Shown: piece after piece, positions 25,754 to 29,092 of the stretch
Layout: each line of letters starts with the position of its first letter
How positions within the stretch are numbered: the first letter of the stretch is position 1
Source: Candidatus Heimdallarchaeota archaeon
GTDB taxonomy: Archaea > Asgardarchaeota > Heimdallarchaeia > JABLTI01
Length of the DNA stretch: 32,000 nucleotides
Direction of reading: 5' to 3'
NCBI GenBank assembly: GCA_030614005.1
Contig: JAUWKS010000032.1
Coordinates: forward strand, 1 to 32,000
The notes under the pieces: model-generated
What the model was told of the DNA's origin: nothing
Seen by the model: only the letters and a program-made list of their open reading frames with translations
The model's database searches: none
Translations under genes and position numbers: made by a program

Positions 25754-25788
25754 GGCCTCACTTCTTCAAGTGAAATCTAGATCTCCAT
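25754..25788 (+). other. 5' arm of the pre-23S processing stem with BHB-like motif
   Basis: CUUCUUC 25761-67 pairs GAAGAAG 29077-83; AAG(U)G pairs CCUU 29070-73; UCUAGA 25776-81 pairs 29064-69; UCCAU pairs AUGGA; A-rich bulges on both strands. Confidence 0.75.
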
Positions 25789-28377
25789 AGTAGGTTCCGA
25801 CACGCAAACGCCATCTGGGGGATGGATTGGCTCGGACGCCGATGAAGGACGTGGCTAGCTGCGATAAGCGCGGGGTAGCTGCAGGCAGGCATAGAACCCG
25901 TGATTTCCTAATGGGAACTCCTAATGCGAACCAATAAGTCGCATTACTCCGTAAGGAGGGGGAACGCACCGGACGGAAACATCCAAGTAGGTGCAGGAAA
26001 AGAAATCAACTGAGATGCCCAGAAGTAACGGCGAGTGAAATGGGCATAGGCCAAACTGAATCCCCATACGCAAGTATTGGGAAATGTAGTGTTACGGACT
26101 CTCTATTGAGCTCTGCGATGCGAAGCTGAATATTCTGGAAAGCTTAACTAAAGAGGGTGATAGTCCCGTAAGCGTAAACATCCCTGAGTGTGAGAGTATC
26201 CTGAATAGCGGGGGTTGGAAATCCCTCGTGAATGGGGCACAACGAGCTCCAAGCCTAAATACGTTCCGAGACCGATAGCGCAATAGTAACGTGAGTGAAA
26301 GCTGAAAAGTAACCCGGAAGGGTAGTGAAAAGTGCCTGAAACCAGATGGTTATAGACGTTTGTGGCCCGAAAGGTAAGATCCTCCATGAAGAGAAAGCTG
26401 GTGACAGCTAGATCGTTTGGAGGGGACCGGGGTCACAAGTTCCGTCTAGAAACACGGACCAGGGAGGTCATACTTGTGGCAAGCTTAAGTGATGTCAAAA
26501 ACACGCAAGCGTAGCGAAAGCGACATGCCCGCAGTTTACAAGGGGCGCCGTCTGAAAGGGCGGGAAGTCACAGGTGTGAGACCCGAAACCGGACGATCTA
26601 CCCCTGAGCAGGCTGAAGCCTAGGGAAACCTGGGTGGAGGGCCGAGCAAGTATTGACGTGCAATTCATGTTTGTTGACTTGGGGGTAGGGGCAAAAGACC
26701 AATCTAGTCCGGTGATAGCTGGTTCCCAACGAAGTGGACATAGGCCAGCCTGCTCTGAGATGGAGCATTCGGTAGAGCAATGATTGATGGTTACGGGAAG
26801 TAAAATTCTCGCCTGTCAGTCAAACTACGAACGGATGTTTATCGTAGAAGAGTAGAGTCGGGCGTGCGTGCGTAAGGCACGTGGCCGAAAGGGGAATAAC
26901 CCAGACTATGGTTAAGGTCCCTAAATCTCGATTAAATGCTAAAATTGGAAGGACGTCATTGGACTAAGACAGTAAGGCGGTAGGCTTAGAAACAGCCACC
27001 CGCTAAGAAAAACGTAACAGTTTACTTACCGAGTCCTTTGGCTCCGAGAATGGACGGGGCTAAATCGAGTACCGATACCTTAGAATACATTGAAAGATGT
27101 AATTTGATAGTTGGGCGATCTGGTTGGGCGGAAGCAGGGCAGTGATGTCCTGTGGACCGATCAGATTTGCAGATCCTGGCGGTAGTAACAGCAAAGAGAG
27201 GTGAGAATCCTCTCCGCCGAAAGGGCAAGGTTTTCACGGCAACGTTCGTCAGCCGTGAGTTAGTCGATCCTAAGGGCGCTCTTATCTGCGGCGCTCGAAA
27301 GGGAAACAGGTTTAAATTCCTGTACTGCGTGGATACGTCAGAAGCGGCAACGCGAAGATCATTTTCTGACGCGACTGGATAAGCTCTGTAAAGTTATCGC
27401 TTTATTTAACTATATAACCCTCAGAAGTACCGTGACGGTGAGAATGAGGTGAAATTAGGAATAGGCTGCCAATAGTGGCGGCTCGAGCTTTTTCCACTCG
27501 CCCATGAAAAGGAAAATGATAAGGATTCCACGTAATCGTACCCAGAACTGACACAGGTGTCCCAAGGTGAGAAGCCTAAGGCGTGTTCGATCAACGATGG
27601 TGAGGGAAATCGGCAAATTCGCCCCGTAACTTCGGGATAAGGGATGCCTGTGGGCTTGAAAGGGCTCGCAGGTCGCAGTGACAAGGAAGGAACAACTGTT
27701 CAATTCAAACATAGCAAACCGCAAGGGTGAAAACCTGTGAACGGTTTGTGAATCCTGCTCAATGCTGGTATGTGAAAGCCGGGTCCAACCGGTCCAAGCA
27801 CCAGTCAATAGCGGGAGTAACTATGACTCTCTTAAGGTAGCCAAATGCCTTGTCGGATAAGTACCGACGTGCATGAACGGATCAATGATTCCTTCGCTGT
27901 CCCCACCGTCGATCGAGTGAACCCACTAGCCAGCGAACAGTCTGGCACCAACCAGCGGGAAGAGAAGACCCCGTGGAGTTTTACTGCAGCCTGTGCCTGT
28001 TTTACGGGTAGTTATACATAGTGTAGTCAGGAGCGTCGAACCAAATTCTCAGGGATTTGGGAATGCAACAATGAAACACTGACTTTAACGGCTTGTTTGA
28101 CTAACTTCTACTTCTGTAGAAGGACAAGTATTGGTGGGCAGTTTAGCTGGGGCGGCTGCGCTTGAAAAGGTATCGAGCGTGTCCAAAGGTTAGCTCAGAA
28201 GGGACGGAAACCCTTCGTAGAGTATAAGAATAAAAGCTAGCTTGACAGGGTTCTTTCCCATAGGGAACTCTGCAACGAAAGTTTGGTCTAGCGATCTGTC
28301 GATGGATCTCGTTGATTCACGGCAGCGGCAGAAAAATTACCCCGGGGGTAACAGAGTCGTCGCAGGCGAGAGCTCAC

Positions 28378-28446
28378 ACTCTCCAGACAAAAAGTTACCT
28401 CGATATATAAAGAAAGATCTAGGTTTACGTTCTGGAGGAGGAGTAT
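28378..28446 (+). other. 69-nt archaeal BHB intron in the helix 89 loop (between E. coli-equivalent positions 2477 and 2478)
   Basis: Central helix GCUC/GAGU, 3-nt bulges ACA and AUA, inner stem CUC-UCCAGA/UCUGGA-G-GAG, outer stem is H89. Splicing gives GAGAGCUCAC-AUCGACC. Confidence 0.92.
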
Positions 28447-28628
28447 ATCGACCCTGCGGCTTGCTACCTCGATGTCGGCTCTTCCTCTCCTGGCGCCGCA
28501 CAAGACGCCAAGGGTAGGGTTGTACGCCCATTAAAAGGGAACGTGAGCTGGGTTTAGACCGTCGTGAGACAGGTCGGATTCTTTCTACTGGTTGTGCTGG
28601 GAAATTGAGGGTAGGGCAGGGTCGGTAC

Positions 28629-28689
28629 ATTGTATGAGATGTACAGATTCAAACTACATGATTAGTTTAGTAATCTCTTATAAGCCAAA
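28629..28689 (+). other. 61-nt archaeal relaxed-BHB/BHL intron in the sarcin-ricin loop (between E. coli-equivalent C2658 and G2659)
   Basis: 5' bulge ACA, inner stem UUGUAUGAGAU/AUCUCUUAUAA (10 of 11 paired), central helix CGGU/GCCA (one C-A mismatch), 3' AA|G. Splicing gives GGUAC-GAGAGGA. Confidence 0.88.
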
Positions 28690-28818
28690 GAGAGGACCCC
28701 CCCGTCGGCGCCTCTAGTCTACCGGTTATCTGACAAGGTAACGCCGGGCAGCCACGCGCCAAGCGATAATAGCTGAAAGCATCTAAGCTAGAAACGCGTC
28801 CTGAAACGAATTTCCCAT

Positions 28819-28946
28819 TCTAACGAAGTTTCGACAATGATTGACTCTTACAAGCTGTTTAGAGTTGTGTTACAATTATGAAAAATTATTTTTTTAGTTG
28901 GTCGTTTCGAGCATGGGAATGGCGACATTAACATGTTTTCGTTGGA
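28819..28946 (+). other. ~128-nt expansion segment at helix 98 (ES39 position)
   Basis: Inserted between UUUCCCAU and CGAAGGUUCC; closed by UCUAACGAA/UUCGUUGGA; branched hairpins; no BHB bulges. Confidence 0.85.
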
Positions 28947-29055
28947 CGAAGGTTCCGATACAAGATCGGTTTGAAAGGAGTGCGGTGTACGCGTCGAGTC
29001 TTCGGGCGAGATGCTCAGCCGGCACTTACTTACCACCTAAGCGTGTCATTACCGA

Positions 29056-29092
29056 AATGGACTTCTAGACCTTAAAGAAGAAGCGAGGGCCG
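29056..29092 (+). other. 3' arm of the pre-23S processing stem
   Basis: Complementary to 25754-25788. Confidence 0.75.

Follow-up and report, generated by a model that had tools for sequence, protein, structure and literature searches.

The only 23S rRNA gene of a Heimdall-group archaeon is very probably interrupted by two introns of the archaeal type, both without an open reading frame (ORF), which would be spliced out by the endonuclease EndA and the ligase RtcB, while the ends of the 23S rRNA would be closed into a ring. The gene lies on a 32,000-nucleotide stretch of Candidatus Heimdallarchaeota archaeon DNA (assembly GCA_030614005.1, contig JAUWKS010000032.1, positions 1 to 32,000), to which we refer as the window. 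Helix 89 (H89) carries intron 1 in its apical loop, and the sarcin-ricin loop (SRL) carries intron 2. An earlier note on this DNA had proposed tRNA-type splicing at these two sites, together with a maturation checkpoint or a family of mobile introns. The splicing part of the proposal finds support in the EndA-type geometry of the introns, the presence of EndA and RtcB genes and ring-shaped 23S sequences from sister species; the checkpoint and mobile-family parts do not.

Two inserts in the 23S rRNA gene

The archaeal large subunit (LSU) model of Rfam (RF02540) matched positions 25794-29052 of the forward strand with 2542 bits, covering 3259 nt against 2987 model positions. This is the sole 23S gene in the 3.6-Mb, 126-contig metagenome-assembled genome (MAG). 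The alignment revealed three places of excess length in the 3′ third of the gene. The H89 apical loop has 71 nt versus 2 in the model, the SRL has 70 nt versus 9, and a long AT-rich stretch follows model position 2882, at the site of helix 98 (H98), that is, of expansion segment 39 (ES39). ES39 expansions of H98 were reported for Heimdall and Loki archaea (PMC7594248). The inserts are also supported by independent DNA data, as sequence words touching intron 1 are present in 19 DNA runs from about 15 studies and the H89 insert recurs in four other MAGs of the genus. The score of 2542 bits for a sole 23S gene, and the finding of insert DNA in many independent runs and MAGs, argue against a dead gene or an assembly error. 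The features of the gene are the following (all on the forward strand; both BHB halves of intron 1 come from the predicted fold and exon/intron covariation, and both halves of the intron 2 motif from the predicted fold and compensatory changes relative to genome G005 of the same genus; BHB, bulge-helix-bulge):

25794..29052, +, 23S (LSU) rRNA gene, Rfam RF02540, sole copy in the 3.6-Mb assembly
28370..28382, +, intron 1 BHB, 5′ half
28378..28446, +, intron 1, 69 nt, no ORF, H89 apical loop, between C2477 and A2478 (E. coli numbering), absent from the ring contigs L034-L036
28437..28449, +, intron 1 BHB, 3′ half
28623..28640, +, intron 2 relaxed motif, 5′ half
28629..28689, +, intron 2, 61 nt, no ORF, splits the GAGA tetraloop of the SRL between C2658 and G2659, absent from the congeners G007 and G009 and from L034-L036
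28673..28694, +, intron 2 relaxed motif, 3′ half
~28812..28945 (approximate borders), +, AT-rich H98/ES39-type expansion from the RF02540 alignment, retained in L034-L036

The exact borders of intron 1 were established by comparison with relatives. The exon junction reads GAGCUCAC|AUCGACC and the spliced H89 loop GAGCUCAC|AUCGAC. As intronless relatives have AGAG(C/U)UCAC|AUCGACC at H89, the intron corresponds exactly to positions 28378-28446. In the predicted fold, exon GCUC (28372-75) and intron GAGU (28441-44) form a central helix of three Watson-Crick pairs and one G.U pair, flanked by the bulges A-C|A at 28376-78 (cut after 28377) and A-U|A at 28445-47 (cut after 28446). The inner stem has 4 bp (28379-82/28437-40), the outer pairs A28371-U28448 and G28370-C28449 are the native top of H89, and the whole can be drawn as a canonical 3-4-3 BHB. 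The archaeal rule, a cut after the second bulge nucleotide next to a 4-bp helix, yields both borders of intron 1 from the structure alone, and the predicted junctions of both introns are identical to the intronless sequences of relatives and of the ring contigs L034-L036 described below.

The H89 introns of other lineages measure 46, 52, 186, 224, 221 and 339 nt and their printed interior sequences differ too, but in all compared lineages four nucleotides complementary to the exon are placed two bases ahead of the 3′ end of the intron. Exon GCUC faces intron GAGU or GAGC in the window genus, in loci L040/L041 and in genome G036, and exon GUUC faces GAAC or GAAU in G018, G022 and G032. G035 is a partial exception, with exon GCUC opposite intron GAGA (3 bp and a G.A). 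Over six intron lineages, an exon C or U at position 2473 has its pairing partner, G or A, in the intron. The strict textbook 3-4-3 BHB can be drawn for the H89 introns of G036, G018, G022, G032 and L040/L041. We consider this comparative covariation between exon and intron the strongest support for the predicted H89 splicing motif.

Regarding intron 2, the exon junction is GGUAC|GAGAGG and the spliced SRL reads GGUAC|GAGAGGACC. The congeners G007 and G009 match both flanks of 28629-28689 with nothing in between, and since they omit exactly these 61 nt, the borders of intron 2 are fixed at the same positions. The predicted central helix consists of G28624-C28686, G28625-C28685 and U28626.G28684, with C28623 facing A28687. 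At the 5′ site the bulge, A-C|A at 28627-29, is canonical and would be cut after 28628, and the inner stem is composed of 28630-34/28679-83 and 28636-40/28673-77. At the 3′ site, after A28689, lies an 8-nt loop (28687-94) closed by the SRL stem GGGUC/GACCC. If C28623.A28687 is taken as the fourth position, the spacing is canonical, with both cuts two bases 3′ of the helix. Only the 5′ half of the motif is canonical, and we assign it to the relaxed bulge-helix-loop (BHL) or HBh′ type, in agreement with the earlier note, which had called it a relaxed BHB/BHL on the sequence of the window. Between the window and G005 the inner stem shows the changes U-A to C-G, A-U to G-C and G.U to G-C, with pairing kept.

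Some further observations concern the surroundings of the two sites. In the minimum free energy (MFE) fold of 28625-28644, exon GUAC and the first three intron bases pair with the intron-internal GAUGUAC, which competes with the splicing motif; this pairing is possible in G005 too and could be an alternative conformer or a coincidence. The SRL of the window (28624/28697) reads GGUACGAGAGGACC, where other Heimdall families have AGUACGAGAGGAAC, and a Watson-Crick pair between G2654 and C2666 is possible. In the splicing motif G2654 is paired to intron 2, but intron-free congeners have this base as well. At window position 28345 the gene has GGGGGUAACAG versus the archaeal consensus GGGGAUAACAG, a change of A2448 to G in the core. 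By eye, with no dedicated tool, we saw neither box C/D motifs (RUGAUGA, CUGA) nor a kink-turn in the window introns; CUGA occurs in the intron 1 copies of G005 and G007 and is lacking in the window copy.

We searched the genome for the enzymes and identified two genes of the EndA family (PF01974). The alpha candidate is a 239-aa frame (92-94 bits) with residues at the catalytic Tyr/His/Lys positions, and its best PDB alignments are to the catalytic subunits of two-subunit crenarchaeal enzymes (2cv8, 3p1z_B, 3ajv_B and 2zyz_B). The beta-like paralogue of 193 aa has Pro in place of the catalytic His of M. jannaschii. The two paralogues, a catalytic alpha and a His-less beta, fit an (alpha-beta)2 enzyme, which bears on the question of subunit type raised by the earlier note. 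According to the literature, enzymes of this type can cut relaxed motifs (PMC5829648), and most Asgard genomes have two EndA paralogues in this arrangement (bioRxiv 10.64898/2026.10.13.758758). An RtcB ligase is also encoded (579 bits).

Other intron types were considered as well. A homing-endonuclease intron was rejected, as the inserts of 61-69 nt hold no ORF, in line with the earlier note, and LAGLIDADG_1 (PF00961) has no match in the whole genome. Matches to LAGLIDADG_3 (PF14528) lie inside long frames on other contigs and are intein-like by position, which agrees with the earlier statement that the window holds no homing endonuclease. A group I intron was rejected too, as RF02540 is the only family in the window at gathering thresholds and the inserts of 61 and 69 nt are much too small to contain the conserved catalytic core (P3-P9) of a group I intron, a type that usually exceeds 200 nt. 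The same Rfam search and a tRNA scan found no 16S, tRNA or other Rfam family in the 32-kb window. The 23S gene has no 16S, 5S or tRNA gene within 25 kb upstream and 3 kb downstream, and hence the rRNA genes are unlinked. A 31-nt segment on the reverse strand (20657-20687) matches 23S positions 28770-28800 with 94 % identity.

The flanking stem and ring-shaped 23S contigs

The leader and the trailer of the gene can be folded into a flanking stem, with the following parts:

25754..25786, +, leader strand of the flanking stem, with outer helices 25754-59 and 25761-67 and inner helix 25776-81 (plus 25784-86)
25775..29075, +, putative excised, ring-closed unit, from the ring junction in sister-species contigs
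29059..29091, +, trailer strand of the flanking stem, with inner helix 29064-69 and outer helices 29077-83 and 29085-91

Cofolding gave two outer helices and an inner UCUAGA/UCUAGA helix, with the cuts falling within the AAA runs 25773-25775 and 29074-29076. The BHB-like stem described in the earlier note is thus present, with 25754-25786 and 29059-29091 pairing. Its core is identical in five genomes of the genus, and the outer helix shows one compensatory change, U-A to A-U at 25758/29086, in G005. Ring closure of pre-23S rRNA that depends on a BHB is known (PMC7714728, PMC12918454), and circular 23S rRNA occurs in many archaea, Asgard included (PMC12918454). The window stem resembles this known processing in having a leader/trailer stem with cuts that are joined into a ring and in the position of the sister-species junction, which falls in the predicted bulge region, but differs in its degenerate motif.

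The spliced H89 junction, extended by flanks specific to the genus, was used to search the metagenome contigs of JGI. This retrieved three contigs (L034-L036; Ga0316596_1004734, Ga0307926_100854 and Ga0307927_1001851), each from a different data set. They consist of 23S sequence only, are circularly permuted and are 87-91 % identical to the window. In all three, the equivalent of window position 29075 runs directly into that of 25775 with the junction CCUUAA|AUCUAG, where three A's leave the exact cut ambiguous by at most 2 nt. Both inserts are precisely absent, the sequence is continuous across both junctions, and the H98 expansion is kept. One of the contigs (3352 nt) has about 195 nt repeated at its ends, as expected of an assembled circle. 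In the 23S tree, L035 and L036 are sister to G000 (the window genome) and G010, and L034 is sister to G009, all inside the genus. Given the 23S-only ring shape and the lack of flanking DNA, the contigs are read as assembled from rRNA, and a DNA origin is hard to imagine. On the simplest reading, the species behind them would carry the H89 intron and splice it out, because all five genomes of the genus with the region assembled have it. For the SRL intron the same argument is weaker, as G007 and G009 lack it in their DNA.

These contigs also bear on the possibility that the inserts are kept as expansion segments, or excised without rejoining so that the 23S is fragmented. Large expansions do occur in Asgard 23S rRNA (PMC7594248), one of them at H98 here, and the BHB folds differ from the MFE folds. 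Nevertheless, it is difficult to see how the SRL could function with an insert in its GAGA tetraloop, which is universally conserved, and the ring contigs keep the H98 expansion while they lose both inserts and are continuous at the junctions. Together with the dead gene or assembly error mentioned above, we consider these explanations extremely unlikely.

Under the favoured explanation of two spliced introns and a ring-closed 23S, the gene would be transcribed as a pre-23S rRNA, the leader and trailer of which would pair into the BHB-like stem. The 3′ end of each intron would pair with exon bases just upstream of the 5′ splice site to form a central helix of four positions, and the two-subunit EndA would cut two nucleotides 3′ of this helix on each strand. 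RtcB would then ligate the exons and also join the 23S ends into a ring, and splicing would rebuild the H89 loop and the SRL. We infer the same processing for the window organism's own RNA, as well as the order of the steps.

Several points weigh against this explanation. The fold of the intron 1 BHB lies 3.7 kcal/mol above the MFE fold, in which the inner stem slips to a 7-8-bp helix with a larger bulge; the canonical drawing is possible, but the word strict used in the earlier note was slightly generous. The 3′ side of intron 2 is non-canonical, its motif fold lies 5.0 kcal/mol above the MFE and its covariation comes from two distinct sequences only. The flanking stem is BHB-like but degenerate, with three standard central pairs and unpaired bases opposite the bulges. 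The RNA origin of the ring contigs is inferred only from their ring shape and absent flanking DNA, and the contigs come from sister species, whose own genes could be intronless. In the read data, six RNA runs contained 0.43-0.59 of the sampled words of 28300-28760, where about 0.56 is expected for exons only, and none of them was among the runs containing the seven sampled words that touch intron 1 (the 19 DNA runs were); the shares are small and we did not count them as evidence of splicing.

Distribution of the inserts

The 23S gene shows a mosaic of occupied and empty sites in this genus. We compared four sites in the five genomes:

G000 (window): 1923/1924 no; ~2450/2451 no; H89 yes; SRL yes
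G010: 1923/1924 no; ~2450/2451 no; H89 yes; SRL yes
G005: 1923/1924 yes; ~2450/2451 yes; H89 yes; SRL yes
G007: 1923/1924 yes; ~2450/2451 no; H89 yes; SRL no
G009: 1923/1924 no; ~2450/2451 yes; H89 yes; SRL no

The H89 intron is present in all five genomes of the genus in which the region is assembled. In the class, the H89-H90 region is assembled in 40 of 82 genomes. The H89 loop is intact in 18 of the 40, namely in 17 genomes of family f2 and in G033. It is not intact in family f1 (5/5, including the window), f4 (9 genomes), f6 (3), f5 (1) and in G035. The insert was checked directly in about a dozen of these genomes. H89 introns are common in Heimdallarchaeia. The situation is different for the SRL, where a search of 399 Asgard genomes recovered inserts of 46-76 nt in just three of them (G000, G005 and G010); this search was restricted to the given lengths with an exact anchor, and many of the MAGs have no assembled 23S gene. 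The survey of Asgard 23S genes suggested in the earlier note thus yielded inserts at both sites, widespread at H89 in the class and rare at the SRL. In the 23S tree rooted with an outgroup, the three genomes with the SRL intron are divided between the two sides of the genus. A single gain and a single loss would account for this pattern, and the tree allows the intron to be ancestral.

The distribution is relevant for the proposed checkpoint, according to which the introns are retained to hold back the peptidyl-transferase and GTPase-activating sides of the subunit until EndA and RtcB act, as a regulated quality control. Both introns disrupt elements essential to the 50S subunit, so unspliced 23S rRNA must be inactive. 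Moreover, the H89 intron occurs in 5/5 genomes of the genus and in every genome of four families in which the region is assembled, and EndA and RtcB would also be the enzymes that process the ends of the 23S rRNA. That splicing must precede function follows trivially, however, from the position of the introns in H89 and the SRL. G007 and G009 have no SRL intron, and the 17 f2 genomes and G033 have an intact H89 loop. With congeners lacking the one intron and families lacking the other, neither can be needed for assembly of the subunit. The interiors of the H89 introns vary in length and sequence and only the splice motif is conserved, which is the pattern of a tolerated parasite and not of a regulator. 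We found nothing that speaks for regulation, and we consider a checkpoint unlikely.

The mobile family suggested in the earlier note would be a self-spreading set of miniature introns, moved by reverse splicing or by a homing endonuclease acting in trans. The mosaic of presence and absence over four 23S sites within one genus would fit it, as would the LAGLIDADG intron at 1923/1924 in congeners and the unlike introns which the H89 site holds in different families. On the other hand, each intron occurs just once in the genome, where searches for further copies returned only chance matches with E above 1. By eye, with no formal comparison made, introns 1 and 2 do not resemble each other. The genome has no LAGLIDADG_1 gene, and the 23S tree permits an ancestral SRL intron with one loss. 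Mobility of this kind therefore appears very unlikely. We favour the view that the two introns are probably remnants, either neutral or selfish, which are passed on in the genus and have at times been lost.

At the other sites of the mosaic we noticed the following. The insert at 1923/1924 has about 850-880 nt (L037:4524-5371 in G005 and L057:4509-5388 in G007) and corresponds to window position 27830/27831, which is empty. It contains a 185-aa single-motif LAGLIDADG ORF (PF00961, 70.5 bits), and no group I family was reported for L037 by Rfam at the gathering threshold. An insert of 187-200 nt at ~A2450/A2451 in the peptidyl-transferase ring is present in L037:5888-6074 (G005) and L054:6820-7019 (G009), and this site is also empty in the window. 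It is occupied in the f2 loci L008-L011 and L017-L019 and in many Heimdall genomes. Further occupied sites were seen near window position 28569 (150 nt, genus g7), at 28546 (320 nt, G033) and at ~28590 (genus g4). Locus L039 of G009 (DATKZI010000020.1) is titled Candidatus Bathyarchaeia, yet its 23S branches inside this Heimdall genus, and the label is probably wrong.

Relation to known rRNA introns and significance

Archaeal rRNA introns have long been known to cluster in conserved functional regions, and Kjems and Garrett in 1991 reportedly described two such introns, small and without an ORF, in the 23S gene of Staphylothermus marinus. In Crenarchaeota, mini-introns lacking an ORF are a known feature of conserved 23S regions (Kjems and Garrett 1991, as cited in PMC3608112), and hairpin introns shorter than 50 nt occur in the 16S genes of Thermoproteales (PMC4496867). 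Like the crenarchaeal mini-introns, the window introns are short, protein-free and situated in conserved rRNA regions, have a BHB made of exon and intron, would be removed by EndA and a ligase and are patchy in relatives. They differ in the Heimdall-group host, in the sites 2477|2478 and 2658|2659 and in that the SRL copy has only a relaxed motif. With 23S introns encoding homing endonucleases, such as the I-DmoI intron of Desulfurococcus mobilis (PMC3608112), they share the splicing chemistry and the BHB signal but, in contrast to these, they lack an ORF, and nothing indicates that they are mobile at present. Archaeal LSU genes can carry group I introns, at 1923, 1931, 2500 and 2593, in some cases alongside BHB introns (PMC6125680). 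The window introns are likewise at conserved LSU sites but are too short to belong there. Asgard archaea are also reported to have non-canonical tRNA introns (PMC11291895; bioRxiv 10.64898/2026.10.13.758758), which come from the same phylum and are processed by a presumed two-subunit EndA of broad specificity, with many relaxed motifs. However, those introns are in tRNA genes, and the text of the preprint (bioRxiv 10.64898/2026.10.13.758758) does not mention rRNA.

The intron type is thus already known, and only for the host lineage and the two sites was no report found. In the literature covered, which is incomplete, we found no published rRNA introns in Asgard archaea and no introns at the H89 and SRL sites. 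Penev et al. removed known intronic regions and gave no further description (PMC7594248). The clustering of introns in conserved rRNA has been attributed to the target choice of homing endonucleases (PMC4496867), and for tRNA it was argued that the exon must supply half of the motif (bioRxiv 10.64898/2026.10.13.758758). In our case, the introns most likely persist only where the rRNA supplies half of the cutting motif.

The 23S genes of Heimdallarchaeia could be seen in more general terms as having become mosaics whose pieces depend on EndA, with five or more intron sites and ring closure, in which splicing at H89 and the SRL is a late obligatory checkpoint of assembly. We regard this as improbable; if true, it would mean a licensing of the large subunit based on tRNA splicing in the closest archaeal relatives of eukaryotes.

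For the favoured explanation of two introns removed by EndA and RtcB, the consequences are more immediate. Heimdall rRNA genes serve phylogeny, primer design and ribosome modelling, and both alignments and gene-based structural models would be corrupted if introns at 2477/2478 and 2658/2659 went unrecognised. The single transcript is a compact natural set of substrates for the little-studied Asgard EndA, with canonical, relaxed and degenerate motifs. The SRL intron in particular is a clean test of the limits of relaxed motifs, since a tetraloop that is universally conserved has to be restored precisely by the enzyme. Finally, the two introns add to the picture of a very wide use of EndA and RtcB in this lineage, which includes tRNA introns and the ends of the 23S rRNA.

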